From a virus, in IMG/VR virus record IMGVR_UViG_3300045812_000062: a stretch of 64,000 nt of DNA. One strand, 5' to 3'. A program made the translations under genes and the position numbers. This document shows, piece after piece, positions 1 through 18,497 of the stretch (position 1 is its first letter; the number at the start of each line of letters is the position of its first letter). The notes beneath the pieces were generated by a model that was given only the letters and a program-made list of their open reading frames with translations, had not been told where the DNA came from and ran no database searches.

Positions 1-264
1 TGTTGGATTTACCTTCGTGGATAACAAACGCTACGAAATGGATTTGTCTGGCATTTCAGCAAAGTGCGCCCAGCACGAAATCGATCATCTTAACGGAATT
101 CTTATCTGTGATCGAGGTCCAGAATACGTTCCAGAGCCTGCGGTCGAAATGGCAACTCCAATCGCAAAATAAGACAATCAGTGTTTCAGAGATCAAAAAG
201 CCCGCAATCGCGGGCTAATTTTTTAATTTGAAAACGTTTGGATAAGTGTTCAGTAACGATCAAA

Positions 265-855
265 CTAGATAGCACCATCACTAAGTTCTTCCGCCACTTT
301 CTCATTTCTGGCTTTTGCACAAATCAAAACCTCCAGGAGATCAAGTATATTAGTCAAAAAATCGAGACTAACACTTACCGTAGATGGCCCTACCGATTTG
401 TCATTGGGAACAACGTATGTGAGTAAACCACGATTTACAAAATTATTAAATTCGTTAAAAAACAAACGCTGAGCAGTTTGCAGATTGTAATTATCAATCC
501 TTAATTTTGAGCAGACCGCAACATAAGTTCTGATCATGGTCTTTACTGGAATATTTACGGCCGCATCTTTCGTTGTTGCATTTGAAAGCAGACATATTTC
601 TGACAATTCGATTTGTCTATTTTCAAGTTCTTCATCAACTGCATCTGCTTTATAAGCAAGAACTTGCTTCCACTGAACAATAGAGCCTTTTTCAGATTGT
701 TTCCACGACAAAGATTGACGATCTTCGATATCATTCTGTAGCAAGAAATGAACGCGGGTTAGGCCTCCACAAATTGATATATGATTCCAGCCAACAATAG
801 AGAACTCATTGCTATTTTGAGACGATTCCAACATTGTTTGATCCTTTTTTATCAC
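265..855 (-). CDS. hypothetical protein
   Basis: 196-aa ORF co-oriented with the next three ORFs; no recognisable motif. Confidence 0.5.
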   Translation of the reverse strand: MIKKDQTMLESSQNSNEFSIVGWNHISICGGLTRVHFLLQNDIEDRQSLSWKQSEKGSIVQWKQVLAYKADAVDEELENRQIELSEICLLSNATTKDAAVNIPVKTMIRTYVAVCSKLRIDNYNLQTAQRLFFNEFNNFVNRGLLTYVVPNDKSVGPSTVSVSLDFLTNILDLLEVLICAKARNEKVAEELSDGAI

Positions 856-904
856 TCAAAAATTAATCCAGCCAAGGCATATAATTATGAACTATATCAA
901 TACT

Positions 905-1678
905 TTATGGATCTACTCCTTCTATACTTACATAAGTTGCACGCGCATTTCTTAGATGGCTTCCTAGAATATAGAATTCATGTCCAGCGGCAGGATTGTA
1001 AACTGTTTCATCATATTCTGACAAAGACACACCAAATAATTGCCCAGCTTTCGCAAATGGCTTAAGAGCCTTCGCTGCATTTATAATTTTTTTATCTACA
1101 GACTTCAGGTGCGCGACAAGCAGATTTAGCTGGATTGCATCATCGCTTTTGCCTGCATCTTCCATCCCCATTGCCAAGCTACGAACCCAACTTTCCCAAT
1201 CGATATCCCTCTCGAACTGGATAATGGATTTATAACACTGCTTGTAGAAGCCAACGGCTATCTCTATGTTATCGCGAGCAGATTTATCTGAATGAGTTGA
1301 TATCAAGTCACTGAGGTTTGAAATCGCATTATGACTGGATGCATGCTTCCCAAGTTCCAGCAAATTTCTCATGTGACCGATATTAACAAGCACGAATTCA
1401 TTATCCGATTTGTACTTAATGGCCTCAAAAATGTTCAATGATGCGAACAAGATATCGAATGGATATAAATCTTCCTCACACTCGTTTTCAACTAGATTTT
1501 CCTGATCACATTCATATCCGTATATGGGTTCCCATCTGATTTTGTCAGCGTACTCTTGCGTGTAACCTAGATCAGGTTTTTCCATAGAATAGATCGTCTT
1601 CCATTCATCTGAAACAGTTGATTTCCATCGCCAACCAACTTGAACCAAACCCACTGCAGGTTTCGTGTTTTCATTCAT
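905..1678 (-). CDS. hypothetical phage-like protein
   Basis: Long ORF; likely start MNENTKP at 1678 overlaps the stop of 1671-2339. Confidence 0.65.
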   Translation of the reverse strand: MNENTKPAVGLVQVGWRWKSTVSDEWKTIYSMEKPDLGYTQEYADKIRWEPIYGYECDQENLVENECEEDLYPFDILFASLNIFEAIKYKSDNEFVLVNIGHMRNLLELGKHASSHNAISNLSDLISTHSDKSARDNIEIAVGFYKQCYKSIIQFERDIDWESWVRSLAMGMEDAGKSDDAIQLNLLVAHLKSVDKKIINAAKALKPFAKAGQLFGVSLSEYDETVYNPAAGHEFYILGSHLRNARATYVSIEGVDP

Positions 1679-2339
1679 TTTTGTTCCCCCGTGTAGAAAT
1701 ATTCTGCCCATCCACAAGCGCTTTGTTAATAGTCTCTTTGAGATTATTAAACACCTCAGACATAACATCAGCTACTTCACCACGAACAATATTACCGCTC
1801 GGCAAATATAGCGCTGCGCCATCCTCATCATCGCTGTCCAAAGAGCTCGCAATCAATTGTTGATAATCACGAAGGGTCTTAGCGTAAAATTCAGATCGTT
1901 TAATATATGTTCTGCAGTCCTTCAAAACTTCGATCATCTCTGATTGATGTGAGATTGACTCATTTTCAAGCTTAGCTACCAACGTTTGGAGCCGCTCGAA
2001 TTCTTCTTTGGAGCCACCAATCTTACGACAAGAGGCCACGGTTGCAACCTGACGCAACAGTCCAACGCTGATCTCGATGGCCTCGGTATCTTCCTTGTCT
2101 TTATTGGCTTCGAGGAGTGTATGAACGACTTCGACGGAATCAACGAGATTCCGCTTTGCGACATCTTCATTAATATCGTACACGGCCTCGATTTCGATCT
2201 TCATGCCCTGTGTTGTTGCATGATCGACGATGTGTGTTGGCTTTTCTGGTTTATTCCAGAGCTTCCAGAAGCTATCCCCGGACACCTTATAAATCCACCC
2301 AACGATTTTGAGAATATGCGGAGTATTAATAGCGGTCAA
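1671..2339 (-). CDS. hypothetical protein (coiled coil)
   Basis: 222-aa ORF with RBS-like AAGGGG upstream. Confidence 0.65.
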   Translation of the reverse strand: MTAINTPHILKIVGWIYKVSGDSFWKLWNKPEKPTHIVDHATTQGMKIEIEAVYDINEDVAKRNLVDSVEVVHTLLEANKDKEDTEAIEISVGLLRQVATVASCRKIGGSKEEFERLQTLVAKLENESISHQSEMIEVLKDCRTYIKRSEFYAKTLRDYQQLIASSLDSDDEDGAALYLPSGNIVRGEVADVMSEVFNNLKETINKALVDGQNISTRGNKNE

Positions 2340-2413
2340 CGGTTGCTTCCCCTTTTATTTAAATAACTATGGTTGAGCTATTTAAATTTTCAACTACGAT
2401 TTATGTTTAAATA

Positions 2414-2878
2414 TTATTTTTCCTTACAGGAATTTTGAATATCCTTCAATGCGAAATTTCGCTTTTCTCCTGTCTCTGTATCGATACCTACCAAAAACCA
2501 CTGTGGTTCCGGATGCCATTCATTGGAGCCATAATCATATCCAATCGGGCGAACATGACGTTCACGTGTTTCTCCTCGCCAGTTCTTATAAATAAAGCGA
2601 ATATCTGGCGCTGTGGCCACTTCACTTGATGGAATATGGACGCCAAGCGCATCTGCAATTTCCCCAACAGCTTCAAATTCCATACGACGCCATTCAATGG
2701 GGTTTAATCCGATCCGCTGCTGGCCAGCTTGTTCAATGCGAGCGCTCGCATGTGAAAATTTTGCGCGGGCTTTATTTAATGGCGATTCTGATCGCAGTAA
2801 TTCCATTACTTCGTGGTCATCTAATTTATTGGTCACATTTACTGCCTTTTTTATTCCAGTGTGCATATATAAAGTCAC
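2414..2878 (-). CDS. WYL-domain protein
   Basis: C-terminal IRFIYKNWRGETRERHVRP...QWFLVGIDTETGEKRNFALKDI matches the WYL pattern. Confidence 0.75.
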   Translation of the reverse strand: MTLYMHTGIKKAVNVTNKLDDHEVMELLRSESPLNKARAKFSHASARIEQAGQQRIGLNPIEWRRMEFEAVGEIADALGVHIPSSEVATAPDIRFIYKNWRGETRERHVRPIGYDYGSNEWHPEPQWFLVGIDTETGEKRNFALKDIQNSCKEK

Positions 2879-3298
2879 GACAAAAAGCCTAATGTCCAGC
2901 GCAATTCCACATTATGTATCCGCTATTGATTTGATCAGATGCATCATTGATGAGTTTGATAGCGCGAATCCTGGTGTCGACTGTCGATACACCGCAAGAT
3001 GTCGGATAACCAAAAGATCAATAATCGTATTGCCTTACACGCAGATTTACATTGTCTCTTTCATTTTTGATCGATTCATGCTCTTTATGAACTGCGTTGA
3101 ACACTGCCCCGTTCTTCGTATAGACGGCCTCCCACCCCCGCTTTCTGGAGGCCGTCTTTTCATTTTATTATCCAGTTAATTGTATTCATCCGGCTAGGTG
3201 GCGTCTTATTTATTGACTTTTTATTTGTGAACTGCAAAAAGGAAATTAATAATTAAAGTGTGGCTCGATGCGCTTTGATTTCTAGAAAAGGTTTCATC

Positions 3299-3811
3299 AT
3301 GACAAATAGAATTGTATTCGACGGTGAATTGGAACCTGGCATGTTTCCAGATTCAGATATCGTTTTTGTTTCCGGTGCTGATTGCAATTACCGCTCAATG
3401 TCTCGTCAGAATATTGGTGATGTTGTTGTATTCGACGACAGCGATGCATCCGACCATCATAACGACAAACCAATTTCAGTTGATCCTCACGAGATGCAAA
3501 TCATTATTAATCACGATGAAGAAACTGAGAAAAATGTCAACGATTTTAATGCGATGTTACGACGTGAAAGCGATGATCGTGAGCGGCGCAGAAACAGTGG
3601 TTTAAACGCTGCTGCATTGGCAACGCTCGTGGCTTCGTTGTCTGTTTCATCACATCGGGGCCATGAACCCTACAGATGGAGGCAAAAATCCATCTACAAA
3701 CCGACAGAGCCGGATCACGAAGCACATTTGAGTGCGGCCGAGATCAAGCGAAAGCGGAAATCTGAAAAACTACGGAAGATTGCAGACAGAACACAAGGGA
3801 AGGGCGCTTAA
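3299..3811 (+). CDS. hypothetical protein
   Basis: ORF starting MTNRIV, first of a tightly packed plus-strand run. Confidence 0.6.
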   Translation: MTNRIVFDGELEPGMFPDSDIVFVSGADCNYRSMSRQNIGDVVVFDDSDASDHHNDKPISVDPHEMQIIINHDEETEKNVNDFNAMLRRESDDRERRRNSGLNAAALATLVASLSVSSHRGHEPYRWRQKSIYKPTEPDHEAHLSAAEIKRKRKSEKLRKIADRTQGKGA

Positions 3812-3812
3812 C

Positions 3813-4514
3813 ATGACTGACACATTGAAATCAAAGATGCTGGCACCTGTGGACATCTACAAAGTTCTCAAGTCTGCACATGACAACGGTCGTCTGGAAG
3901 ACAACCTTGCTCAGATCGCCCGTGAAATCGCACGGCTTGATCCTGCCTATGTTGCTTTCGCTGCCCGTAATGATGCGAAGACCCTGAAGGAAATGGTCGA
4001 AGAAGCATGTACGTTCGGAGTATCCGAGCAACCTGCCGATATCGCAACCAGCGGCGTTGAAATCCGCAAACTGGAGTGGGTTCTTGAAAACGAATTTTGG
4101 AAATGTACGACACACACTGATTATAACATTGAATGCTGGTGGGAGGTGGATGTCATCAAGACGCCGCGTGATTACAATGATCCTCATTACTTCGTGATCA
4201 ATGATGACGACGATGAGCGTTATGAAACTATCGAAGAGGCTATGGATGCCGCTCAAACGATTTACGAGACTGTGGCAAATTCGTATTTCATTACACGACT
4301 ACCAGCTCAATCCGACGACGAAAAGTTCAAAGCGGGCCGCAAAAAGGGTCTGGTTGAAGGCGCAAAAATTGCTGGAGATTTCGTCTATAACCTATACGAC
4401 AATGATGGTGTTGTAACGAGCCATGATTATGAAAAGGTTAGGGACCAAATTCTGCAACAGATCGAGCAATCGACGCATGAGGATACGGAAGATGCCGCGC
4501 CTTCGCCGCGATAA
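3813..4514 (+). CDS. hypothetical phage-like protein with acidic/Pro C-terminal tail
   Basis: ATG 1 nt after upstream stop; ends EDTEDAAPSPR. Confidence 0.7.
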   Translation: MTDTLKSKMLAPVDIYKVLKSAHDNGRLEDNLAQIAREIARLDPAYVAFAARNDAKTLKEMVEEACTFGVSEQPADIATSGVEIRKLEWVLENEFWKCTTHTDYNIECWWEVDVIKTPRDYNDPHYFVINDDDDERYETIEEAMDAAQTIYETVANSYFITRLPAQSDDEKFKAGRKKGLVEGAKIAGDFVYNLYDNDGVVTSHDYEKVRDQILQQIEQSTHEDTEDAAPSPR

Positions 4515-4875
4515 GATTACGTACGAGCAGGCCCGAGCTGACCACGATTACCTGTGGCAGACCTACGGGCCTGCTTATGATATGACAGGCGCATATGATG
4601 AAGATCGCGACATGGAAATGCTGTTGCGTAACCCCTCCAAGAAAACTGCGATTGACTGTTACTGCAGTCGTATTCGGTACTGGATGGAGGTCGGACCTCA
4701 AGTGAATTCTTCGACTGGCGAAATTTCTGGAGGCGATATCGACTGGCTCGATTTCAAGGTGATCGATATTGCCGTCCGTCATGGTTTTATTTCTGAAGAA
4801 GATTCCATGGATGCGGATTTTCTCACCGATCTTTATCAACGCAAAAGCACTCTGCTCAGGAACAAAAAGGATTGA
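4423..4875 (+). CDS. hypothetical protein (true start probably downstream of 4423)
   Basis: Fills gap between coupled ORFs; start uncertain. Confidence 0.6.
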   Translation: MIMKRLGTKFCNRSSNRRMRIRKMPRLRRDKITYEQARADHDYLWQTYGPAYDMTGAYDEDRDMEMLLRNPSKKTAIDCYCSRIRYWMEVGPQVNSSTGEISGGDIDWLDFKVIDIAVRHGFISEEDSMDADFLTDLYQRKSTLLRNKKD

Positions 4876-4877
4876 TT

Positions 4878-5264
4878 ATGTCTTATAAAATCGAAAAGGC
4901 CAAAAAAGAATTGCGATCCGCTCTTAAAGACGCTGGCGTACATGGTCCTGGTGGCAAAATCCTCAACGCGGTCAATAAAGTAGTTGAAGCTCACCTGGAA
5001 GGCTATTTAAGGGCTGAAGATGTCGATGCTGCGCTCGCAGATAAAAATGCTGAAATCTCTCGTCTAAAGACGCGTTTGTATGCGCTTGAATTTCTTGAAC
5101 CACTTAACGATGATCAAGAAGAATTCTTAAATAAAATTCGGCCTCTGAATGAAATCATCGACGCGCTTTACGAGCATCGCATTGATGCTAAAACCGCAGA
5201 TGAAATGTGCCGAGCGCTACACCCGTCAGATCAAACAGAAACTTTAACGACGGGGTTTAAATAA
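4878..5264 (+). CDS. hypothetical protein carrying NKIRPLNEIIDALY motif shared with 42182-43876
   Basis: AAGGA RBS; 20/26 aa identity to a segment of the 564-aa coiled-coil protein. Confidence 0.75.
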   Translation: MSYKIEKAKKELRSALKDAGVHGPGGKILNAVNKVVEAHLEGYLRAEDVDAALADKNAEISRLKTRLYALEFLEPLNDDQEEFLNKIRPLNEIIDALYEHRIDAKTADEMCRALHPSDQTETLTTGFK

Positions 5265-5265
5265 T

Positions 5266-6393
5266 ATGAAAGAACTCGAACCTAACACCGATGAAACTGA
5301 AGCCAAGGCAGCAGCGCAGTACGACTACGGGAAGCGCATCGATTCCAATTCTTGTGATGAGAGACTGCCTGGTCTAGAACTGCTCAAATCTATCAAGGAG
5401 TGGAGCCGATTGCATGATCTAAATGAATCCGTGATCGCGCAAAAAGGAACTCCAAGCGACAGCGAAATCGACTTCGAAGTTGAGGCATGGACAAGGATTA
5501 AGAACCTGACTTCTGACATCGATGTGGCTATTGCCGCCAAGGTCGCGGAAGCCAAATCCGATCTAAAATCCCGCTTTGTCGCGCTCTGTAAAGATTACGC
5601 CGAAGATGCAGAACCTGCGACCTCATATCGACAGGCAATGGAAGATTTGATTGATGCACTGGAAAACGGCGATGAAAATCTGATGCAGCCAGAACCATTC
5701 GAGGCACTATTCGTCGAGAACGACCTGGTAGCCGAACTTGCAGAGTTCTTATTCCAATCTGAATACCAGGACGATGCGAAAAAACTGGCCTATCCTAAGA
5801 AGCATTTTGAACGCATGGCAACCGAAGTTTTGGCCTATTTCAAAGATAACAATCCAGATGCAGACGCTTATCGGGAAAAGTTCCTGATTGCTGACGAGCG
5901 AGCTGTTAAATGGCGGGATCACTTTCAGTCGTTAAAGATGCTGGGACATGATGCAGCAACAAAAATGAACATTGATGACTGCAAGGTGTATCATGTCTAT
6001 GATCCGAATTTTACAGGAAATGGAATTGTAGTCAGCCACACCAACCTATTGAAAGCTATCGAGGATGCCCGAGACATCCTTGATGACTATCGTAAAGATG
6101 CCGTCAATGAAGGTGAGTGGCCCAACGAAGTAGAAGACATCAAAGTCATTTTGGCAGCATCTGCAAACGATTGTGAAGACGCTGGAGTTGTCGTTGCGAA
6201 GGCAACGGCACTCTCTGATCACAATGACGATGCCGAATATTTCATCACATTGACTGACGACGCATTCAATCAAGAACCGAATGAAATCAATACGTATCTC
6301 ATCGCAAAACACCTACAGCTAGCATGCTTTGATGAATCTAAAGCCAGCTTTACGGCTGAGGTGCTTTCGCGCACAGGTTTTGGATTGATTTGA
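5266..6393 (+). CDS. hypothetical phage-like protein
   Basis: 375-aa ORF, coupled to upstream gene. Confidence 0.7.
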   Translation: MKELEPNTDETEAKAAAQYDYGKRIDSNSCDERLPGLELLKSIKEWSRLHDLNESVIAQKGTPSDSEIDFEVEAWTRIKNLTSDIDVAIAAKVAEAKSDLKSRFVALCKDYAEDAEPATSYRQAMEDLIDALENGDENLMQPEPFEALFVENDLVAELAEFLFQSEYQDDAKKLAYPKKHFERMATEVLAYFKDNNPDADAYREKFLIADERAVKWRDHFQSLKMLGHDAATKMNIDDCKVYHVYDPNFTGNGIVVSHTNLLKAIEDARDILDDYRKDAVNEGEWPNEVEDIKVILAASANDCEDAGVVVAKATALSDHNDDAEYFITLTDDAFNQEPNEINTYLIAKHLQLACFDESKASFTAEVLSRTGFGLI

Positions 6394-6487
6394 GCCTACG
6401 TATTAGAAAGTATGGGTCTACTTGAAACTCAAATAGGCCCAACCTTACTACCAGCAAACACCAACCACAATCTAAAGTTTTAGCCTG

Positions 6488-6517
6488 TTGACACCACCTA
6501 CCGTTCACGAGTATCGT
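6488..6517 (+). promoter_or_regulatory. putative sigma70 promoter
   Basis: TTGACA-N18-TATCGT upstream of ORF at 6548. Confidence 0.45.
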
Positions 6518-6547
6518 TCCCGTCCACAAAAGGGTTGGGGACATTCG

Positions 6548-6808
6548 ATGAAGCTCACGGTAACAAACGTTGTGCTAACTGATGGACTTATAAAACACGG
6601 ACAACAGCTAAGCGGCCAAGCTACTTTTTCAGACGGAAAGCATTATGATTTCATAATTGGACCGAGAAATATTTACATCCGTTTTGTCGTTTTCACTCAT
6701 AAAAATGGCGAATGGCATTCCAAAGGGTTTCATTCTTCAAAAAGGGAATATCCATTACTGGAATGGCTCAAATGCAATGAAGAGATCGATACAAGAATGC
6801 GAGCATAA
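6548..6808 (+). CDS. hypothetical protein
   Basis: ATG with GGGA RBS downstream of putative promoter; 86 aa. Confidence 0.55.
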   Translation: MKLTVTNVVLTDGLIKHGQQLSGQATFSDGKHYDFIIGPRNIYIRFVVFTHKNGEWHSKGFHSSKREYPLLEWLKCNEEIDTRMRA

Positions 6809-6830
6809 TCATATCGATCTCGTATCATTA

Positions 6831-7247
6831 TTAATCGTCGCGATAAACCTTTTCACGACGCTCATGGCGTTCCTGTGCTTCTATGGAAAGCGTTGCGATG
6901 GGACGCGCATCCAGTCTTCTTACACTGATTGGATCGCCAGTTTCTTCGCAGAATCCGTATGTTCCATCTTCAATGCGCGCAAGTGCATCATCAATTTTGG
7001 CAATCAGTTTTCTTTGCCTGTCACGTGCACGCAGTTCGATTGCCCTGTCAGCTTCAGATGATGCACGATCTGCTACGTCTGGCTGATGGATATTACTTTC
7101 CTGCAGAATTTCTAACGTGTCTCTCGCTTCACGCAGAATCTCATTTTTCCACGTTATCAGTTTTGTACGAAAGTAAGCCTGCTGCCGCTCATTCATGAAC
7201 GGCTCCTCGTCAGTAGGCTTGTAAGCCCCATCGTTCAATTCACTCAT
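6831..7247 (-). CDS. dksA: RNA polymerase-binding transcription factor DksA (alphaproteobacterial, zinc-free type)
   Basis: EEPFMNERQQAYFR N-terminus, DxxDxA tip (DVADRASSE), GTYGFCEETGDPI..RRL.ARPIATLSIEAQE; GAGG RBS. Confidence 0.95.
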   Translation of the reverse strand: MSELNDGAYKPTDEEPFMNERQQAYFRTKLITWKNEILREARDTLEILQESNIHQPDVADRASSEADRAIELRARDRQRKLIAKIDDALARIEDGTYGFCEETGDPISVRRLDARPIATLSIEAQERHERREKVYRDD

Positions 7248-7273
7248 TCAAAATCCTCAGTGATTGGCGATAC

Positions 7274-7309
7274 GGGCGGGTCTATAGACAGATCCCACTT
7301 GAAATACAA
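7274..7309 (-). promoter_or_regulatory. putative dksA promoter with GC-rich discriminator
   Basis: Minus strand TTGTAT-N17-TATAGA followed by CCCGCCC. Confidence 0.5.
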
Positions 7310-7361
7310 CCTAGAAAGCGCCTGTTGGTAATTTTGATATTAAGGCAAGATTTGCAATTTG

Positions 7362-7928
7362 TATCTATGCCGCCTGTTCGGCGGTAAACTATCACGATGA
7401 TACGTAAACCGACTACCCAGTATTCAGAGCCGCCTATGCGGCGGTAAACGTGACTATTGCAGGGTCTCAAACGCGCTGCAAATTCAGAGCCGCCTGTGCG
7501 GCGGTAAACGTATCCTGTTTGTCGATGAATTTGACAGTGCTATTCAGAGCCGCCAGAAGGCGGTAAACGAAACGAGAGATACCTATCTCGTTGGTGTGAT
7601 ATTCAGAGCCGCCTGTGCGGCGGTAAACTTACCTGGTCCTGCCTGGTCGTCGTTTTTTTTATTCAGAGCCGCCTGTGCGGCGGTAAACTCAATACCCTCC
7701 ATTTCTCTGCATGCTGTAGAATTCAGAGCCGCCTGTGCGGCGGTAAACGATATCTGATCAATGTGCGGGACTGCGCACCTATTCAGAGCCGCCTGTGCGG
7801 CGGTAAACGGAATTTGGGATTTGAATGACAACGACGAATAATTCAGAGCCGCCTGTGCGGCGGTAAACATGCCGACCGGGCATTTCAGTCTCGATATGCT
7901 ATTCAGAGCCGCCTGTGCGGCGGTAAAC
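7362..7928 (-). CRISPR. type I-F-like CRISPR array, 10 repeats / 9 spacers, no cas genes in window
   Basis: 28-bp repeat GTTTACCGCCGCACAGGCGGCTCTGAAT (minus strand) at 7422, 7482, 7601, 7661, 7721, 7781, 7841, 7901; 27-bp variant at 7542; degenerate terminal repeat at 7362; all spacers 32 bp; 5-bp hairpin CCGCC/GGCGG as in I-F repeats. Confidence 0.97.
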
Positions 7929-8150
7929 TCTCCCGAAAAGGGAGATAATGTAGGTGTGGCAATGATTTCAAAGAACATTGGGTTAAAACCACGATTTTTT
8001 AAGGTACAATAAAACCCAGCAAATTCAAGGCTTATTTTTAATTGCAAAAAATCGGGGTCTGAACCTAATTTCACAATTTAAAATATCATAGACATTAAAC
8101 TTTCAATATCACTAATATTTGTGTAACCATTTTGGATAGAACGATGCCAA
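7929..8150 (-). promoter_or_regulatory. CRISPR leader
   Basis: AT-rich non-coding stretch next to the perfect repeats, opposite the degenerate terminal repeat. Confidence 0.55.
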
Positions 8151-8621
8151 ATTAATAATGAAGGGTTCCCATAAAAAATGACGATCTATTCGATATTTCA
8201 CTCATCACGATTGGTCGACATTCAGGTGTTCGCAAAAAACCTTCTCAGCCGTGAAACCTGGGACGTCTTTGGCCGTATTTAATCTCGCGATCTGTGCTCG
8301 ATTGCTATTTTTGTCGATATAAAATTCAAAAAATGTTTATTTACACACAAAAAAGGTACGAGTTGATGGGTAAAAATGCTCAATATTATGCTGATCGAAT
8401 ACAGGCAAGAGAAGCCGCTTACAAATATTTGAATAATCCGTTCCCTGAAGATACTCGCAAAGCCCGTTTTTATGCAAAAGAAAAGGTTCATAAACGTGCC
8501 ATGGATTCATATTTTGATGATATGGAAGAAATTTATGGATCAATTGGCATAAAAAAAGTATCATTGATAACATCCCGAATTCGTTCACTCCGAAGCGAAA
8601 CAAAAAAGAAATGCAACATAC

Positions 8622-9236
8622 ATGAGCAGACCTTGGAACAAACAGACTTCAGCAACGCATCTAGAACCCATTATTCTTGGTCAGTTTGACAACTTTGATC
8701 AATGGGTATCATTTGCAGAACAGGCGTTGACGAGCATCACGGATAATCGTGGCCGCCCACTCAAGGCTATCTGTATCGACGATATTGGCCGCAGATGTAA
8801 CATTGGTGCAGATTTTATGCGCGCCCGAGATGAAAACACGTTCCCAGTACGCTATTTCACTGAAATGAAAGAGCGTACCTTGTCAGAATTTTTGCAGCAT
8901 GACATTGAAGTTGTTGCACATCGCTATGTTTATAATGAGCCTCTCAATATTCGAGGTCAGATACAGCAGGTGCCGCAACGAGGAATTGTTCACGGATGTG
9001 AGCCAATGCACCACAATGGATATCCTGTTTCAGACGTCGAAGGTTTGTATGCAAAGGGGCAGGTCGACAAAGTGATCGCCAGTCTTCAGACGGACTTGGA
9101 TGAAATGCAGTCTGGTTTCAGGCACCTTTCAGCGATGGCCGTTGAAGGTAAACGAATTTCGGATGCAAAGCTGGAATTTGCAAATAAGCGCATTGCCGAA
9201 TTGGAAAATCAGTTAGCAGCAAAATCCCAAAGCTAG
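8622..9236 (+). CDS. hypothetical phage-like protein
   Basis: 204-aa ORF with C-terminal coiled coil. Confidence 0.65.
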   Translation: MSRPWNKQTSATHLEPIILGQFDNFDQWVSFAEQALTSITDNRGRPLKAICIDDIGRRCNIGADFMRARDENTFPVRYFTEMKERTLSEFLQHDIEVVAHRYVYNEPLNIRGQIQQVPQRGIVHGCEPMHHNGYPVSDVEGLYAKGQVDKVIASLQTDLDEMQSGFRHLSAMAVEGKRISDAKLEFANKRIAELENQLAAKSQS

Positions 9237-9304
9237 TTAAGCTATCACTTTCAGCACAAACCTTTCGCTGACATTCGAGCGCAATACGATACTTATGGTG
9301 GATT

Positions 9305-10123
9305 ATGAGAAAACTTAACGAACTCATTGAAAATGTAGAGGAAGGACATGGCCCTGACCATAAACTTGATAGCCTAATTGTGAGTGAGCTAGGACTTGAG
9401 GAAAAATGTCCATACTGGCTTCATTCGCATACAAGGATCACACCTATGCGGCTGACTTCTTCTCTTAGCGCGGTACAATCTCTTTTTGAAGATTTGATGC
9501 CTGAGGATGAAATGATTGTTTCCATCTCTCGTAACGTGTCGATTGCACGAGTTGGCAGAAAGGTGTGTGGATCAGTCGAATATTTTGCCGAAAGCTCGCA
9601 TAGATCGGAAACCCGCGCTCGATTGGCAGCCATCTTAAAAGCTGTAGAATTCAAGTTACAGACAGATGCAAATGAACCGGAGATTGTTACAGAATTCCCA
9701 GGACATGTTTTCAGCAGTCACGCAGCAGAACTTTGGAGTTATGATCTTTCATCTTTGATCAAACATGCAAAAGAAGACGACTACGACTTTAAAAATTCTA
9801 TGACACTCGCTGACGATATTGAGCAACTACGTGAGATGCGTAATGTACTACCTGAGCTAGCTGGTTTCAGAAATCAGTTACTATTGAATCTGTGGAGTGA
9901 TTTCTCGGGATATTGGCTATGTGTTGGACATGAATCCAATTATTCGCATGAAGATTTCTTACGTTATTTATTTGGCGTCATTGTTGGAGGAAAACGTGAA
10001 ATTTCTTTTGGCTCTCTAGAGGCAAAAGCGAGTGATGTTATGGCAAACTCCTTAATCCGATGCCATGATCTTAAAACGGCACGTAATGCAGCAAGAGCGT
10101 GGCTCTCATTAAACAGAGGATAA
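9305..10123 (+). CDS. hypothetical phage-like protein
   Basis: 272-aa ORF with GGTGGA RBS. Confidence 0.65.
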   Translation: MRKLNELIENVEEGHGPDHKLDSLIVSELGLEEKCPYWLHSHTRITPMRLTSSLSAVQSLFEDLMPEDEMIVSISRNVSIARVGRKVCGSVEYFAESSHRSETRARLAAILKAVEFKLQTDANEPEIVTEFPGHVFSSHAAELWSYDLSSLIKHAKEDDYDFKNSMTLADDIEQLREMRNVLPELAGFRNQLLLNLWSDFSGYWLCVGHESNYSHEDFLRYLFGVIVGGKREISFGSLEAKASDVMANSLIRCHDLKTARNAARAWLSLNRG

Positions 10124-10126
10124 AAC

Positions 10127-10417
10127 ATGGTCGATCTCAACAGACTACACAATAAATATCATGGTACGGCACCCAAGAGCTCTAAATATATCGGGCGCGG
10201 CTCTCCGTATGGAAATCCATATGTCATTGGCAAGGACGGCACTCGCGATGATGTGTGCGACAAGTTTGAACAAAACACGCTTCCAACACTTGATTTGCGA
10301 CCTCTTATGTTTCAGCACGTGATCTGCTTCTGCAAACCGCAGCGATGCCATGGAGAATCCATTCTCAGGGCACTCGAAGTTCTGGAAAACGAAGAACGTG
10401 AAAACATAATGCTGTAA
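10127..10417 (+). CDS. DUF4326-family protein
   Basis: YIGRGSPYGNPY...RDDVCDKF...ICFCKPQRCHG motif. Confidence 0.85.
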   Translation: MVDLNRLHNKYHGTAPKSSKYIGRGSPYGNPYVIGKDGTRDDVCDKFEQNTLPTLDLRPLMFQHVICFCKPQRCHGESILRALEVLENEERENIML

Positions 10418-10485
10418 GTGATCATTCCATGTAATTATTAACGATGACTTTAGCAGATAACATATTCTAAACGTTAGATAATAAA

Positions 10486-11847
10486 TTAGCTAGATTTGCT
10501 TACCGCATTCAGAGAAGGCGAGCAGAATTTCACTCTCATCAATTCAACAGCCTGCTCAAACTTCTTCTCTGAATCTCTAACCGCTTGATATGGAGTCATA
10601 TAATCCAATTCTGGATTAGGCATCAATTTCCAAGTATTAACTCTTCTATTTCGGAATTTTCTAGCTTCACTATTAAACCATTTCATTCTTTGATCAACCC
10701 GGTCCTCATGTCTTTCTTCCGCTTCCCGTCTCATTCTTTTAGCAGTCTCTAAAGCTTCTTTTTTAGCCCTTTCAGCGATCTCAAATGCCTCTCTTTTAGC
10801 TCTTTCAGCGGCCACTATTGCTGCGCTTCTAGCGTTTTCGGCAGCCTCCTGTATAGCTCTTTTGGTTCGTTCAGCAGCTTCAAGCTTCTTCTTCGCAGCA
10901 TCTATTTTATTCATGAATGCTTCGTAAATCGGCAAGCCCATCATGTCATCTGGAATTTTTGGTAATTCTTGTGAGTATTTTGAATTTAAATTGCTAACCC
11001 CCAACCATAAATAGTTATACCAAGTCGAGCCATTATTTAAAAAACTAATAACATCCAATCCATGTAATGTTGCTCTTTCATTTATCCACCTTTCAAAATC
11101 AAAGCTCTCAAACAACTCATTATCAATACGAGTTAAAAACGTTTGAACCAGAACTTTTATTTCTGTCATTCTTTTTTCCGCTAATTTATTCTCCAATTCA
11201 CGAGACATCTCATCATATTTGCGATTCCACAACCATTCGCGTGGGGCATCATGCAAAATCAAATTTTCAATATTCTTGACCTTTTTATCCTTGAACGCAG
11301 CGAGATTTATTTCTATGGTGGATATACCAATATCCTTCAAATACGAAATTTTTTGATCATCACAGAAGTGCGTCACCGCGAATTCAACGAAGAATCGAGT
11401 TCCTCTGTGTTCACAGATGACGTCTGGAATTATCCTCCCGACTCTCTTTTCCAAAGAGACGCAGTCGACATCAATATCAAAAGCTGGTGACTTTATCACT
11501 TTAAATTCACCCCGCTTTAAAGAAACCTCAGGAAGTGAAATTTTCCTTCTTTTTTCTATGACGGCCTTTGCCAATTTATGAAGTGCAGTTTCTCCAGGAG
11601 AATAACAGTCTCTGTCTCTCGCATTTGCCTCATGGGCGAAGTGATAAATCTGCTTCTTTGCTTTCCCTTTCTTGGCGATCAACCTCTCCCCGCATTCGGG
11701 ACAAACACAAGCGCACGACAAACCGCGATCCACTTCTGATATATGAACGATTTCGCCACCATTAACTTTTTCTCCGAAAAATATCCTGCCTCCTTCATGT
11801 TTTTTAAAGAAGTCTCCAATCAAGAAATCGTCACGGTCGCATTCCAT
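10486..11847 (-). CDS. CoiA-like zinc-finger/PD-(D/E)xK nuclease with coiled coil and C-terminal MbcA/ParS-like segment
   Basis: CVCPECGERLIAKKG...HFAH...GETALHKLAK, IIPDV...VEFAVTH; C-terminal WKLMPNPELDYMTP. Confidence 0.65.
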   Translation of the reverse strand: MECDRDDFLIGDFFKKHEGGRIFFGEKVNGGEIVHISEVDRGLSCACVCPECGERLIAKKGKAKKQIYHFAHEANARDRDCYSPGETALHKLAKAVIEKRRKISLPEVSLKRGEFKVIKSPAFDIDVDCVSLEKRVGRIIPDVICEHRGTRFFVEFAVTHFCDDQKISYLKDIGISTIEINLAAFKDKKVKNIENLILHDAPREWLWNRKYDEMSRELENKLAEKRMTEIKVLVQTFLTRIDNELFESFDFERWINERATLHGLDVISFLNNGSTWYNYLWLGVSNLNSKYSQELPKIPDDMMGLPIYEAFMNKIDAAKKKLEAAERTKRAIQEAAENARSAAIVAAERAKREAFEIAERAKKEALETAKRMRREAEERHEDRVDQRMKWFNSEARKFRNRRVNTWKLMPNPELDYMTPYQAVRDSEKKFEQAVELMRVKFCSPSLNAVSKSS

Positions 11848-12081
11848 ATGTACTTCTCAATTCATCTAATAATCATATGTGGACTTTTTGTTATCATTGA
11901 AGAATATGTTTTGGATGTAAAGAGGTCGGAAAGCTATATGTTTTCACGCGGATAAATAATCCCATTTCAAGTGTGTGACGCAGTCACTTTCGACCACCTT
12001 TCAAAAAAATTAGTAATTATAATCGCTTGACGTTCGTCAACATATTGGTCAGCATTATTTAAAATAATCAGAAAAAAAGGA

Positions 12082-12303
12082 ATGAGCATGAAGATCAATC
12101 TATTTCTCAAGAAAAATATGGACATTCTGACGATGGTTCAGCTCATCCTCATTCTTCTTGTACTCCTCCATAGTTGGTCTGAATTCCTTAGTTCAATTAA
12201 ACTCGGTTTAAATGGAGCGCTTTTCGTATTTTCTCTCTCAGGTTTCTACACGGCCTCGCTTTCAAAAGATGAAACAATGATCTTCAAAAAGGATAGAATA
12301 TGA
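12082..12303 (+). CDS. small membrane protein
   Basis: Two hydrophobic segments; AAGGA RBS; overlaps next ORF. Confidence 0.5.
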   Translation: MSMKINLFLKKNMDILTMVQLILILLVLLHSWSEFLSSIKLGLNGALFVFSLSGFYTASLSKDETMIFKKDRI

Positions 12304-12719
12304 AGATTAAGCGTTTATTTATTAATAATGTGAGTGCCTTGTCGGTGTTCTTTATAGGTCTGTTTCTATTTAGCAGCTCTGGTATCGCATCGGATTTGAT
12401 CAAAAAAGTAGGAAATCCTGCATACAATTTTCTGCCGTGGCTTGGTTTCATTATTTTCACGATCTTCATCGTCGTTTCCAGAATCCGGTTTTTCTGCAAG
12501 ATGCTGCCTGTCCTCGCATATCGCCACGACAACGCATTTATTCCCTTCGCGCTGGCGATATTCAATCTGGTTTTCTACCTGGCGACGGTGTTTTCTTTGA
12601 ATACTGAAAATCAGAATGTCGACTTTCAAATTCATTCGGTTTCCTGCCTCTACGTGGGATGCCTATTCGCCGCCTTTGCGCAAGGCACATACCTCCACCC
12701 AAAACCACAAACAATTTAG
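12300..12719 (+). CDS. multi-pass membrane protein
   Basis: About four hydrophobic segments. Confidence 0.55.
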   Translation: MKIKRLFINNVSALSVFFIGLFLFSSSGIASDLIKKVGNPAYNFLPWLGFIIFTIFIVVSRIRFFCKMLPVLAYRHDNAFIPFALAIFNLVFYLATVFSLNTENQNVDFQIHSVSCLYVGCLFAAFAQGTYLHPKPQTI

Positions 12720-12765
12720 TTTTTTTCACTTCTAACCTCTCAAAAAATAGAGAAGGCAATTTATC

Positions 12766-13554
12766 ATGCTGCATAATCCAGCAATTAATCCCGATGCAAA
12801 TGCCATTATTGATGTTCAGACCGCAGAAAGGACAGGGGACTGGATACAGACGTATTCGTCTCGTCAGTTTTGGGCGCTAGACCCCCGTCCTGAAGATTTC
12901 GATATTATGGATATAGCACATGCGCTTTCCATGATTTGCCGTTTTAATGGCCATTGCATTCGATATTATTCGGTTGCAGAACATTCTATCCTGATGGCGA
13001 TTTATTTTATTAAAAAGGGCGATTATGCCAACGCACTTTGGGCGCTCTTGCATGATGGCACCGAAGCCTATCTCTGTGACATTCCTAGACCTATTAAGCC
13101 TTATCTAACTGGTTACAAGGAAGTCGAAGACAGTCTGATGTCGATTATTGCCAAAAGATTTCATCTTGATGGCGTTACCATGCCGAAGGCTGTCAAGGAT
13201 ATCGATTACGCTATTCTCTTCGCAGAAGCTGCGCAAAATATGGGACCTGCACCAACTGCTTGGAATAGTCCCGTTGATGCGCTTGACGTCAAGCTTCAGT
13301 ATTGGACGCCTGAGCAGGCAGAGCGCAATTTCCTGCATGTCTTTGACGTTCTCACCAATCCAAATACCGAAATCGACTACGATTTACTTTTCACGAACGA
13401 CAACAAGCCTGCCGCCCAAGTCGACATTTCGAATATTGTCGAAGTCAGTGATTGGCTGAAGGTGCTCGATGCCGATGGCGGCAAGGCTTCTCTACCACGT
13501 CATGCTATCGAGGCACTTCTAAGCGCAGCTCGTACCAATCAATTGGCCGCCTGA
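12766..13554 (+). CDS. HD-domain phosphohydrolase (phage YfbR/5'-deoxynucleotidase-like)
   Basis: DIAHALSMICRFNGH...YSVAEHS...ALLHDGTEAYLCDIPRPIK. Confidence 0.9.
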   Translation: MLHNPAINPDANAIIDVQTAERTGDWIQTYSSRQFWALDPRPEDFDIMDIAHALSMICRFNGHCIRYYSVAEHSILMAIYFIKKGDYANALWALLHDGTEAYLCDIPRPIKPYLTGYKEVEDSLMSIIAKRFHLDGVTMPKAVKDIDYAILFAEAAQNMGPAPTAWNSPVDALDVKLQYWTPEQAERNFLHVFDVLTNPNTEIDYDLLFTNDNKPAAQVDISNIVEVSDWLKVLDADGGKASLPRHAIEALLSAARTNQLAA

Positions 13555-13558
13555 CGAT

Positions 13559-13948
13559 ATGCGCGACGAAGTCGATATAAAACACAAATTCGGCTACTCG
13601 CATCACGTGGAGATGCAAGAGATCAGGGCCAAGCTGCGCGCTGAAGGCGAGACTGACCAGGCAACGATTCATTTCAAAGCCGTCGCCGAATATGAGCGAC
13701 GGCATAAGAACGATCCAACTTTCGCTCAGAAGCAGGCATCAGCGCGTGCCAGAGGCGAAAAGTGGGTTCCGCCACTCGAAAGCGACCAGCCTTCGCTCCT
13801 GGATCAGTACAGGGCCGCTCTTGAGGCAATCAGGGACGGCCATAACGACCCGCGCGAACTGGCGCGTACGGTTTTAGAAACGAACACATTCAAAAAGGGC
13901 GCGCACAATGGCGACGAAGCTGACTTACAGACCCAACGACCTCGATGA
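13559..13948 (+). CDS. hypothetical phage-like protein
   Basis: Packed ORF. Confidence 0.6.
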   Translation: MRDEVDIKHKFGYSHHVEMQEIRAKLRAEGETDQATIHFKAVAEYERRHKNDPTFAQKQASARARGEKWVPPLESDQPSLLDQYRAALEAIRDGHNDPRELARTVLETNTFKKGAHNGDEADLQTQRPR

Positions 13949-14234
13949 CTGGGGCTTCATTCGTAGGGATGATGGAAGTCTCTTTGCAGTCGTTCGACGT
14001 CCAATCGGCCAAGTGGATATGGCTTATCATCGCGAAATGAAGACTGACCCCTTCGAGGACCTCGGCCGTCGCCTGATTGCGTCGTATGACGAAGAAAGCA
14101 CCTATGAGAAACTTCAGGCCACCGAACGACGAGCTGCCGATGCAGAACGTCTCCTGGCAGAAATCGAAAAGCGCTTTCCGAATTGGCGATCCTATCGAGA
14201 TTTGCTGGATTGCATTGATGCAACGCTTATTTAA
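13908..14234 (+). CDS. hypothetical phage-like protein
   Basis: Packed ORF with AAGGG RBS. Confidence 0.6.
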   Translation: MATKLTYRPNDLDDWGFIRRDDGSLFAVVRRPIGQVDMAYHREMKTDPFEDLGRRLIASYDEESTYEKLQATERRAADAERLLAEIEKRFPNWRSYRDLLDCIDATLI

Positions 14235-14272
14235 ATGCTTACCCCTACACGCAATTAATTCTCAGGTAAAAA

Positions 14273-14665
14273 ATGGCTTATAACAATCATCGCAATATTA
14301 ATGATTTTGAATTTCTGGCATTTATTTTTTTCTTAATTCTCTTTATTTCACAAATATATACGCCACTCTGTGATTTTAGCACAAATTGGAGTCGATCTTC
14401 ATCCAGAGACAAAATTTGGTCAAACGTTACAAATTTTGCTTCAATGGCAGATTGCGACACCAATAGCAAACGAGCTAATTTTTTAGGAATGATATGCAAA
14501 GTTCATAAAAATTACGAAATAATATCGGATGGTAATTCATTATATATTTATAATGCCTTGACCGAAAATTTGGTGATGACTGGAAAAATTAATGATGGTG
14601 AAGGCTCTGCGGCTTATACAAAAGATGCGACTCAATTTTATGGGTTGGCGTATTCATTTGAATAA
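14273..14665 (+). CDS. hypothetical protein with N-terminal TM segment
   Basis: Hydrophobic FLAFIFFLILFISQI; AT-rich. Confidence 0.5.
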   Translation: MAYNNHRNINDFEFLAFIFFLILFISQIYTPLCDFSTNWSRSSSRDKIWSNVTNFASMADCDTNSKRANFLGMICKVHKNYEIISDGNSLYIYNALTENLVMTGKINDGEGSAAYTKDATQFYGLAYSFE

Positions 14666-14782
14666 TAGTTCATATTTAAGAAGATCTATTTTTTAAAATA
14701 ATATATATCATCTTGATAAGGCATATAATTATTGCTAGCCAACGTATTCAATTCTGATTTACCGTTAATTGGAGATAAACCG

Positions 14783-15955
14783 ATGTCCCATTGCCCTGCA
14801 ACTACTGATCAGATCGATAGCGCCTGCATGTCATACCGTCACGATTTCGGTCTGCTAGCAACAGAAAAACGGGATTCATTGAGAAATGACGCTCGATATT
14901 GGCTCGAAGCCTGGATGAAGGAAGGGCTTGTCCTCGATATCAATAATCTCAATCAGACCATCGTTAATTTACGACTTGAAATCGCAGAGTTGAAAAAAAA
15001 CGTCGCTTCGGCAGAAGCTTCGACTTCCGCTGAGAATGATTTGCGTACTCAAGTCATTCTATTGCAGTCAGAAAATAATGAATTAAAGCGCCAGCTCGAA
15101 AAAGCGACCAATCCGGAGTATTTGGCAACGGCACTAACATCTATTGGCGTTGCGGATAATGATTGGCAAAAAATCGCAGAACAACGAACTGAGCAGGTGG
15201 CTGCTCTTAATTCTGCTCTCAAGGTGGCAAAACAGGCAGTAGTTGATTGGCTACATATTTATGCCCATGATTTTTGTGATGAGGCAGATGTTAAAGCCGC
15301 ACAAGAGCGCGTGCATAAACACGGAACAATCGCATATATCGCAAATGTGGAGCAGGTTATTAGAGAAGCATACCAAGTTGCTTCATATGAAGATGTCTTG
15401 CCTGAGCATCCAGTTATCGGGCAATTGAATGATGTTCCGCTACCGATTAACCGAGCCTATCTGACAACCGATAAGGATGGCTCAACCGTTCTATCGACTG
15501 TAGAACGCGTATGGTCAGATGATGATATCCAGGACTTCGAAATCAGTACTGTCAATCTGGTTGACGGGAAACAGTCAGCTGAAATTATTCGCTCACTCAG
15601 ATTTGAAACATTAAGACTTTACAATGATATACAGAACAAAGTTCGTAAATTGCGTGACCAACATGGCAAAGCTAGTGGAACTTTAGCCGAAGAAGCGGCT
15701 TGGGATATGGCCAATCGAGTGATGTCATACATCAAGCAGATTAAATTTGACGGGCAGGGTGCCTTTGTGAAAGGGCAAGTTATCAGTAATGATGATGTAA
15801 CAGAGATCAATCGCGTGCTGACAAAATTCAGTCATACGATTGAAAACCAGAAAACAAACGGGCCGGATGTCAAGCAGGCAGTCATTGCTAACTATGGTGA
15901 CCTTGCACTCGTATTGTTACGTAAAATCGCAACCGCTTCGAAGGAGACAGCATGA
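14783..15955 (+). CDS. hypothetical coiled-coil protein
   Basis: GGAG RBS before MSHCP; long coiled coil. Confidence 0.7.
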   Translation: MSHCPATTDQIDSACMSYRHDFGLLATEKRDSLRNDARYWLEAWMKEGLVLDINNLNQTIVNLRLEIAELKKNVASAEASTSAENDLRTQVILLQSENNELKRQLEKATNPEYLATALTSIGVADNDWQKIAEQRTEQVAALNSALKVAKQAVVDWLHIYAHDFCDEADVKAAQERVHKHGTIAYIANVEQVIREAYQVASYEDVLPEHPVIGQLNDVPLPINRAYLTTDKDGSTVLSTVERVWSDDDIQDFEISTVNLVDGKQSAEIIRSLRFETLRLYNDIQNKVRKLRDQHGKASGTLAEEAAWDMANRVMSYIKQIKFDGQGAFVKGQVISNDDVTEINRVLTKFSHTIENQKTNGPDVKQAVIANYGDLALVLLRKIATASKETA

Positions 15956-16239
15956 GAAACGGCAAAACCCCGTACACCGAGCCGTATGGCGTGTTGGCCG
16001 ACCATGATCAGGTTCTGGAGATCATCGGCCGTCTGGATAAGTTTGAGACCTGCAAGGAAGCCAGAGAATTTCTGCTTTCTATTGTTGAATCTGGCGAGAT
16101 CGATATTAGGCCAGTTGGCACCTACCTCGACATTCGGCACGCGAAACTCATGTCTCCGAAGGCACTGATCGATGACATTGTGACCTTTACGGCTGGCGCT
16201 CGCCTGAACTCCCAAGCAATTCGAGGCGTCGCACTATGA
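15952..16239 (+). CDS. hypothetical protein
   Basis: ATGA overlap, AAGGAG RBS. Confidence 0.6.
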   Translation: MRNGKTPYTEPYGVLADHDQVLEIIGRLDKFETCKEAREFLLSIVESGEIDIRPVGTYLDIRHAKLMSPKALIDDIVTFTAGARLNSQAIRGVAL

Positions 16240-16451
16240 GGATCGACAATTCACTCCGCGAAGCGTCCAATGACAGCGAGCGCCTTGCCATGTGTAGGCT
16301 CGCTACGCTGATCAAAAACGGGCTGTTTCAGCAGGCTCCAGACATGGCAGAGACCAGCATGGCGATGATGTCTCTTGAGGCAAATATGAATAAAGTCGAC
16401 GTCAATCTTATGCACTTTGGCGACTTTGAGATTATCGTCCGAAAAAAGTGA
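16236..16451 (+). CDS. hypothetical protein
   Basis: ATGA overlap. Confidence 0.55.
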   Translation: MRIDNSLREASNDSERLAMCRLATLIKNGLFQQAPDMAETSMAMMSLEANMNKVDVNLMHFGDFEIIVRKK

Positions 16452-16591
16452 CATTAAAGATTAGATCGGATCTAATAAACCTTACGGAATTGCAGGGCTT
16501 TTCGCTTAGTTGGTTACATGGATTGATTGACAGCTGTGTCGATATGTTGTGAAGACGTCGCACTGTGTGACTTAGAAGGAATAGCAACCAT

Positions 16592-16852
16592 ATGTGGGTG
16601 GATGACAGATCAGACGGAGAGCCGCAAAATGATCCTGAAGAATTCCACGAAGTCTGGTGGATTGCTAGCAGGCATCAAGAACCATGGGCAGGCCTTCGCA
16701 TTGCGCATTTTCGCAAGACCACAGATGGAACGTTGATTTTCTTCATTTTGGGCGACACTCCAGAACGGACTGGCCCTCGCACATGGAGCGATGTCTCTGT
16801 ACGAGAAGGCTGGAAAATGGTCGAGCAGATACCCATTCCTGCTAGATGGTGA
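16592..16852 (+). CDS. hypothetical protein
   Basis: AAGGA RBS; 86 aa. Confidence 0.55.
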   Translation: MWVDDRSDGEPQNDPEEFHEVWWIASRHQEPWAGLRIAHFRKTTDGTLIFFILGDTPERTGPRTWSDVSVREGWKMVEQIPIPARW

Positions 16853-16868
16853 CCGATAAATGACACGA

Positions 16869-16893
16869 GAAAGCCCCTCGCTAAGCGAGGCTC
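16869..16893 (-). terminator. intrinsic terminator between convergent genes
   Basis: CCTCGC-TAA-GCGAGG hairpin with T-run on the minus strand. Confidence 0.5.
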
Positions 16894-16900
16894 GTATTCA

Positions 16901-17464: not shown

Positions 17465-17476
17465 GGAGCCTCCTGC

Positions 17477-17992: not shown

Positions 17993-18097
17993 TTGTTTGT
18001 TCTCCTTAATTAAGGAAACTATTACAGGGTTAAATCGGAAATATCCATTGTTAATTATGCAAAATAGGTTTTAAATGCGCATTTAAAGGAGCCAAGG

Positions 18098-18265
18098 ATG
18101 TCATATCTATCAATAGTCGTCACATTTGCGATTGTGAGTGTAATTTTTGCCAGAAAGGCACGCCAGTTTCGTTTGGATGGCAAGCAAAATACCATGAAGT
18201 TATTGATTGCCCTGTATCTCGTATTCGCAATGATTGCCTGCGCTGCTGTAGTTTTTTCGTCATAA
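18098..18265 (+). CDS. small two-TM protein (55 aa, below ORF-track cutoff)
   Basis: Read by hand: MSYLSIVVTFAIVSVIFARKARQFRLDGKQNTMKLLIALYLVFAMIACAAVVFSS; AAGGA RBS. Confidence 0.55.
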   Translation: MSYLSIVVTFAIVSVIFARKARQFRLDGKQNTMKLLIALYLVFAMIACAAVVFSS

Positions 18266-18269
18266 CAAA

Positions 18270-18422: not shown

Positions 18423-18497
18423 TAAAAAAAGACTAGCGATTAAATTTTTATCATTTATCTATGAATTATATGCCGCATCTAAATTTTGGAGAACCGT

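Follow-up and report, generated by a model that had tools for sequence, protein, structure and literature searches.

What serves a CRISPR array that stands apart from any cas gene, in DNA that otherwise has the look of a mobile element? This question is raised by an array in the stretch of DNA analysed here, which is 64,000 nucleotides long and which we will call the window. The original prediction described it as an orphan type I-F-like array on a phage- or plasmid-like element and offered two readings: either the array hijacks an I-F Cascade of the host, or it pairs with a divergent effector encoded elsewhere on the same replicon. The evidence set out below favours the second. It is probable, in our view, that we are dealing with a type I-F array of the remote ('isolated') kind, from a divergent, mostly metagenomic lineage, and that the mobile-element-like replicon of ~1 Mb on which it sits encodes its machinery outside the window. 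The array looks orphaned because the window is short. What appeared to be a cas-less array on a mobile element would then become an ordinary remote array, and an ordinary remote array provides no evidence for the hijacking of host Cas proteins.

Repeat finding, a fuzzy scan and direct reading of the sequence define ten repeats, spaced 60 nt apart, with nine different 32-nt spacers between them, just as had been counted originally. The shuffle test agrees, with eight repeat copies within three mismatches of the consensus against none expected (100 shuffles). Nine of the repeats are 28 nt long and one is 27 nt; read on the minus strand, the repeat is GTTTACCGCCGCACAGGCGGCTCTGAAT. The six copies nearest to the leader, on the 7928 side, are mutually identical, while three of the four leader-distal copies are altered (Table 1). 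Perfect repeats at the proximal end and decayed ones at the distal end fit the acquisition of new spacers at the leader end, and the polarity of repeat decay noticed earlier is thus borne out copy by copy.

Is this then a type I-F array? The repeat folds into a 5-bp CCGCC/GGCGG stem with a 5-nt loop, followed by an 8-nt handle, CTCTGAAT (as the 5' handle of the crRNA, CUCUGAAU), which differs from CTTAGAAA; the canonical I-F handles CUUAGAAA and CUAAGAAA are both absent from the array. In PLSDB the repeat is matched best by the canonical I-F1 array of Salinimonas iocasae plasmid plas12 (NZ_CP039853.1), which follows cas1f-cas3f-csy1-csy2-csy3-cas6f and shares its strand with the minus-strand window query. 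The Rfam model CRISPR-DR4 matches on the minus strand, where only the terminal copy exceeds the gathering score of 35, with 35.5 bits. We assign the array to type I-F because its hairpin core is that of the Salinimonas I-F1 array and because it keeps the 5-bp fold. Judged by its repeats it is a type I-F array with a non-canonical 8-nt handle, and the earlier description of an I-F-like array with an atypical handle stands, the hairpin being as in canonical I-F1. The DR4 hit, the alignment to the cas-oriented Salinimonas array and the gene order of a relative described below (L002) all place the array on the minus strand, running from right to left in window coordinates.

Table 1. Features of the array, its surroundings and its relatives. 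Coordinates refer to the window unless a contig or locus handle (L002 to L005) is given.
Feature	Coordinates	Strand	Remarks
CRISPR array	7362..7928	-	repeats end at 7389, 7449, 7509, 7568, 7628, 7688, 7748, 7808, 7868 and 7928
Terminal leader-distal repeat	7362..7389	-	altered; handle degenerate: CATAGATA
Leader-distal repeat	7422..7449	-	altered by a single substitution
Leader-distal repeat	7482..7509	-	consensus still matched
Variant repeat, leader-distal	7542..7568	-	altered; 27 nt with a 4-nt loop, CCGCC-TTCT-GGCGG; the 5-bp hairpin still folds
Spacer 3 (third from the leader)	7749..7780	-	32/32 to a siphovirus-like provirus; protospacer preceded by 5'-CC
Palindrome, 17 nt	7929..7945	.	TCTCCC-n5-GGGAGA; abuts the first repeat; from direct sequence reading
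Leader	7929..8062	-	~134 nt, 64% A+T; ~86% identical to the L002 leader that follows the cas2/3 stop codon
DksA-family gene	6831..7247	-	115 nt downstream of the array, same strand; not cas
CoiA-N-like nuclease-domain protein, 453 aa	10486..11847	-	nearest gene upstream of the leader on its strand; Pfam score 27.4 bits, with CoiA_N clusters as Atlas neighbours
WYL-domain ORF	2414-2878	-	~4.5 kb past the distal end of the array; Pfam E 5.8e-5, PADLOC WYL E 0.0032
PAPS-reductase-family gene	62963-63823	+	matches BrxP, SspD and DndC defence models
Palindrome of the relative	L002 4096-4112		TCTCCA-n5-TGGAGA
Last two spacers of the relative	L002 4621-4712		identical to each other
Second array with the repeat	L003 1-700		same repeat family; GCGTA and GCATC loop variants; same 27-nt copy with TTCT loop
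C-terminal TnpB/Cas12f-like zinc-finger fragment	L003 699-965		
Alphaproteobacterial plasmid I-F variant loci	L004 4296-12309; L005 4290-12351		csy1-like gene to array
WYL gene of the Pararhizobium plasmid	L005 3378-4199		adjoins the csy operon

When the 72 non-overlapping ORFs of the window were compared with the PADLOC and NCBIfam models, no cas genes were detected. The Cas-related models that were hit are those for Cas12f, by a TnpB-like gene, for a WYL domain and, marginally, for Cas5b (E 0.0099); further hits, unrelated to cas, concern the PAPS-reductase-family gene, DksA, RelB and Lar. The window was also searched by tblastn, both with the Cas2/3 protein introduced below (P0215) and with eight I-F Cas proteins taken from Salinimonas and L002; the best E was only 0.09, and Pfam and PHROGs scans of the genes immediately around the array returned no Cas-like match. 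Within the window, profile scans and tblastn alike therefore uphold the earlier statement that cas genes are absent from ~7 kb to one side of the array and from 56 kb to the other. A deletion scar of cas2/3 was considered as well and rejected, as tblastn found no cas2/3 remnant beside the leader.

The neighbours of the array are of a different kind. The DksA-family gene follows it on the same strand, and read-through from the array into this gene would be possible. The CoiA-N-like gene is on the side taken by cas2/3 in L002, yet it bears no relation to Cas proteins; it is one of two neighbouring ORFans that were checked, the other resembling small phage proteins, and neither is Cas-like. The WYL-domain ORF lies on the far side of the array. 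At the right end of the window, the PAPS-reductase-family gene may be part of a DNA-modification defence system that runs past that end. With TnpB, RelBE, Lar, WYL, recA, a permuted tmRNA and many ORFans, the content of the window is mobile-element-like, in agreement with the setting originally proposed. Window positions 1-20000 had no megablast match among plasmids and phages. The ClpB-like ATPase of the window (P0041) falls in the same 90%-identity cluster as WP_315921494.1 of Mesorhizobium sp. SP-1A, from a contig of 1,189,113 bp, so that the element may have a relative that is cultured or named; a related replicon of this strain was not found in PLSDB.

Where does the same repeat occur next to cas genes? 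The exact repeat is found on two contigs of one JGI metagenome, L002 and L003, and is absent from IMG/VR and from species-representative genomes. A loop-degenerate pattern of the repeat also found nothing in IMG/VR, and in the species-representative genomes it gave one non-CRISPR chance match, in a Hoeflea MAG. L002 carries, in this order, the 3' part of cas1, a gene for a Cas2-Cas3 fusion of 1161 aa with the Pfam domains Cas3_I-F_Cas2, Cas3-like_C_2 and HD, a leader homologous to that of the window, and an array with the same 28-nt repeat. The handle of the window is thus used in L002 right next to cas1-cas2/3. As non-canonical handles stand beside cas1-cas2/3 both here and in other I-F variants, the unusual handle is best seen as lineage variation and is no ground for excluding the array from type I-F. 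The G+C content of L002 is 44%, and that of the window 44.4%. At the end of the L002 array the last two spacers are identical, either through spacer duplication or as an assembly artefact of the contig end.

L003 has a second array of the repeat family in a context that is unlike both the window and L002, with the zinc-finger fragment and also an SNase-domain gene beside it. A homology search with the L002 Cas2/3 recovered a family of metagenomic Cas2/3 proteins at 38-98% identity. Cas2/3 (P0094, P0098, P0102, P0106) and Cas1 (P0468) proteins of the divergent lineage are encoded on contigs of ~146, 253, 404, 597 and 835 kb, with the Cas2/3 relatives on those of ~146, 253, 404 and 597 kb. Large replicons or giant elements may be a typical setting for this divergent I-F lineage.

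The leader connects the window to L002 more closely still. It is AT-rich, as stated originally, at 64% A+T against 56% for the window as a whole, and the homology between window and L002 has its boundary exactly at the L002 cas2/3 stop codon. Its ~86% identity to a cas-adjacent leader exceeds the ~70% that marks isolated or remote I-F arrays in the sense of PMC13142298, the cas-adjacent leader in this case being that of another contig (L002). Directly at the leader-repeat junction we found the palindrome, and the L002 copy differs from that of the window by a compensatory change which keeps the symmetry. Since the symmetry is kept in this way, the palindrome may be an integration or regulator site; more broadly it is a candidate protein-binding, hairpin, integration or regulator site at the junction. 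Within the leader, no IHF consensus site was found within one mismatch, and a promoter scan for the array gave nothing above chance.

What machinery does the element itself carry, then? All nine window proteins that were looked up by exact sequence are found on 124-172 JGI contigs, the longest of which has 1,002,252 bp. P0215, a protein of 1183 aa named Cas3 by JGI, belongs to one of the clusters recovered with the L002 Cas2/3; it is found on 116 contigs, and the longest of these also has 1,002,252 bp. Two distinct contigs of exactly this length are very unlikely, and we therefore take P0215 to be on the contig of the window's element: from the identical longest-contig figure, the similar contig counts and the same source we infer that it is encoded on the same ~1-Mb contig as the window. 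P0215 has I-F Cas2 and Cas3 C-terminal domains. In an alignment to the L002 Cas2/3 it keeps the nuclease motifs HDLGK, RHEL and THHRLP and the helicase motifs GTGSGKT and DEIDD, and so it is, apparently, an intact I-F Cas2/3. A Cas2-Cas3 fusion is in this way linked to the repeat family twice, beside the same repeat in L002 and, as P0215, on the contig of the element.

With P0215 on the same contig, the replicon would have I-F machinery outside the window, which changes the answer to the opening question. The word 'orphan' fits the window, where no cas gene is found, but is wrong at the level of the replicon, where the 1,002,252-bp contig has an I-F Cas2/3; an orphan in the strict sense, with no matching cas on its replicon, the array does not appear to be. 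Hijacking of a host I-F Cascade is consequently not required, and a divergent effector elsewhere on the replicon, the other option of the original prediction, is favoured, the identity of P0215 to any plasmid Cas3f in PLSDB being at most ~31%. The prediction also held that the locus would be an ordinary one if a full, canonical I-F operon lay right beyond the window. One part of this is borne out, namely cas2/3 on the replicon, but the short distance, the csy, cas6f and cas1 genes and a canonical set are not.

The relatives of P0215 in IMG/VR are at most 34% identical to it, and 401 genomes sampled from the family to which the Hoeflea MAG belongs yielded none. Of ten clusters considered as Cas1 candidates, none is represented on the 1,002,252-bp contig. 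A Csy3 search with the Pararhizobium protein recovered close relatives only (at least 63% identity), among which the Csy3 of the element was not recognisable. Of the element's I-F cas genes, only cas2/3 has thus been traced to this contig.

If the array is remote and served from the same replicon, it would work as follows. The array would be transcribed on the minus strand, beginning at its leader end. The anatomy of the repeat suggests that a Cas6f-type enzyme would cut each repeat after the CCGCC/GGCGG hairpin, releasing 60-nt crRNAs with the 5' handle CUCUGAAU. These would load a Csy/Cascade complex made elsewhere, which would recognise 5'-CC protospacers and recruit Cas2/3 for degradation, and new spacers would enter at the leader end through Cas1-Cas2/3. 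The divergent I-F lineage documented here is marked by this handle, by a Cas2/3 at most ~31% identical to the Cas3f proteins of PLSDB, and by an array behind cas2/3.

One discordance appears to fit the remote-array reading less neatly. Leader and repeat are close to those of L002, whereas the sole traced Cas2/3, P0215, is only 47% identical to the Cas2/3 of L002. For this reason the Cas set of the element may not be the cognate partner of the array. Either leader and repeat are conserved across the lineage, or leader and array were acquired laterally. The lateral version, which we think unlikely, is that leader and array were captured together from an L002-type I-F locus by recombination or transfer, and are served by an L002-type Cas set on another co-resident replicon or, cross-compatibly, by the element's own I-F set. 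It would explain why the leader (~86%) and the repeat (100%) agree so well with L002 while the only Cas2/3 traced to the element's contig does not, and it is in line with the finding that no Cas2/3 cluster at least 68% identical to that of L002 has a member on the 1-Mb contig. The homology to L002 ends exactly at the cas2/3 stop without any remnant, as expected if leader and array move as a unit, and the matching G+C content of 44% points the same way. Horizontal acquisition has also been reported for isolated I-F arrays in P. aeruginosa (PMC13142298). The discordance would disappear, however, if an array beside P0215 carries the same repeat and leader, and the L002-type cas genes are known from short contigs only, with nothing that ties them to the cell of the element. 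Should capture be correct, giant elements would trade ready-made immune memories independently of cas genes. The mismatch of a well-conserved leader and repeat with a poorly conserved Cas2/3 offers a case in which the movement of arrays between I-F sub-lineages can be tested.

Is there a sign that the array has been used? Spacers 1-5 were scanned against IMG/VR as patterns in which every sixth base could vary. Spacer 3 matched a single contig there, the provirus IMGVR_UViG_3300011151_000013 (L011): all 32 of its 32 bases agree, and the protospacer is immediately preceded, on its 5' side, by CC. This provirus encodes a portal, a head protease/major head protein, a major tail protein and a tape measure protein, and the protospacer lies inside an ORF of 192 aa directly after the tape measure gene; its G+C content (47.5%) is close to that of the window (44.4%). 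The 5'-CC (GG) PAM of type I-F is present at this protospacer, a single case in which the chance of CC alone would be 1 in 16. A perfect match next to the right PAM shows this memory to have been written by I-F adaptation machinery and to be antiviral at least in part. It also ties the ~1-Mb element to a temperate siphovirus-like phage, which is a clue to the host. A search of the spacers for targets with the I-F GG PAM had been proposed as a check, and its outcome is divided: spacer 3 answers it in full, while the other spacers scanned (1, 2, 4 and 5) have no match in IMG/VR. A known target thus exists for one of the nine spacers. Blastn of the whole array against INPHARED phages and PLSDB plasmids gave no significant protospacer, its only match being that of the repeat to Salinimonas. 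None of the window spacers matches the window itself, nor do the L002 spacers extracted by script target it (most L003 spacers were left out, as the repeats there are variable).

These observations also bear on whether the array still functions. It could be a stranded copy, left behind by a rearrangement and passively carried, that is no longer transcribed, processed or extended. We regard this as improbable. A relic would account for the lack of cas genes within 7 kb on one side and 56 kb on the other, for the failure to find a convincing promoter, for the mutations in three of the four leader-distal repeats and for the eight of nine spacers with no known target (the IMG/VR scan covering spacers 1-5). 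It would not be expected, though, to keep six perfect leader-proximal repeats, a full 134-nt leader and a junction palindrome with a compensatory change, nor does it sit well with the perfect match of spacer 3 to a target with the correct PAM. With flawless proximal repeats, a complete leader and, on the same contig, a Cas2/3 that seems intact, the array is less likely to be an inactive relic.

The repeat alone could also belong to another CRISPR type with Cas6f-like repeats, either type IV-A1 or a Tn7-linked I-F3 CAST, whose guides would serve plasmid competition or transposition and not DNA degradation. The handle of the window ends in AAT, and some I-F3 repeats have a handle with this ending; the element is mobile-element-like; and a PAPS-reductase-family gene is present in the window. 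Against this, no DinG/Csf, TniQ or Tns family match was found in the 72 window ORFs, and L002, a relative, carries cas1 together with a Cas2-Cas3 fusion, both of them lacking in types IV and I-F3. The array, with its nine spacers, bears signs of polarised growth, and the one target identified lies in a structural region of a phage, beside a CC PAM. We consider such an assignment very improbable indeed and have rejected it on the missing csf/dinG and tniQ-tns genes and on the cas1 and cas2/3 of L002. A phage mini-array was likewise considered and rejected.

Among described cases, the isolated CRISPR3 array of Pseudomonas aeruginosa comes closest (preprint PMC13142298). Isolated I-F arrays of this species have leaders that resemble cas-adjacent ones and are reported to be active in trans; CRISPR3 of strain ATCC 10145, with a leader nearly identical to that of the cas-adjacent array, supports interference and primed adaptation and was apparently acquired horizontally (preprint PMC13142298). 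The window array similarly lies far from cas genes and has a full leader that resembles a cas-adjacent one (~86%). There are, however, clear differences. The replicon is not a chromosome as in P. aeruginosa but a ~1-Mb mobile-element-like contig of alphaproteobacterial type, the matching leader is on another contig (L002) and not beside the element's own cas2/3, and the Cas lineage is very divergent, with ~28-31% Cas2/3 identity to plasmid-borne Cas3f. Activity, reported for the P. aeruginosa arrays, is a prediction for that of the window.

With the canonical I-F1 system of Salinimonas the array shares the 28-nt repeat, the 32-nt spacers and an identical hairpin core, CCGCCGCACAGGCGG, and with canonical I-F1 in general the 5'-CC PAM, seen at spacer 3, and the Cas2-Cas3 fusion, seen in the cas-linked relatives. 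It differs in the handle, CTCTGAAT in place of the Salinimonas CTTAGAAA, and in the start of the repeat, which is GTTTA where canonical I-F1 repeats have CTTAA or GTTCA. The position of the array differs too, following cas6f in canonical I-F1 but cas2/3 in the cas-linked relative L002.

This last arrangement is known from alphaproteobacterial plasmids. In Neokomagataea tanensis (NZ_CP032486.1) and Pararhizobium gei (NZ_CP119411.1) the order is csy1-like, csy2, csy3, a cas6f-sized ORF, cas1f, cas2/3 and array, so that the loci end in cas1f-cas2/3-array as L002 does, and they also have a non-canonical 8-nt handle. In these loci csy1 and cas6f are annotated as hypothetical, in one case as a 'Sec7 domain' protein. 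A WYL gene stands beside the Pararhizobium locus, and a WYL-domain ORF 4.5 kb from the window array. However, the repeat of the plasmid loci, GCTMCCCGCCGGRTAGGCGGCTGAGAGA, and their handle, CTGAGAGA (CUGAGAGA as the handle in I-F variants), both differ from those of the window, and their Cas2/3 is only ~28% identical to that of L002. Finally, plasmids and phages are reportedly found, in surveys, to carry cas-less ('orphan') arrays. Like these, the window array is borne by a mobile element and has no cas genes next to it; unlike strictly orphan arrays, it appears to belong to a replicon that encodes at least an I-F Cas2/3.
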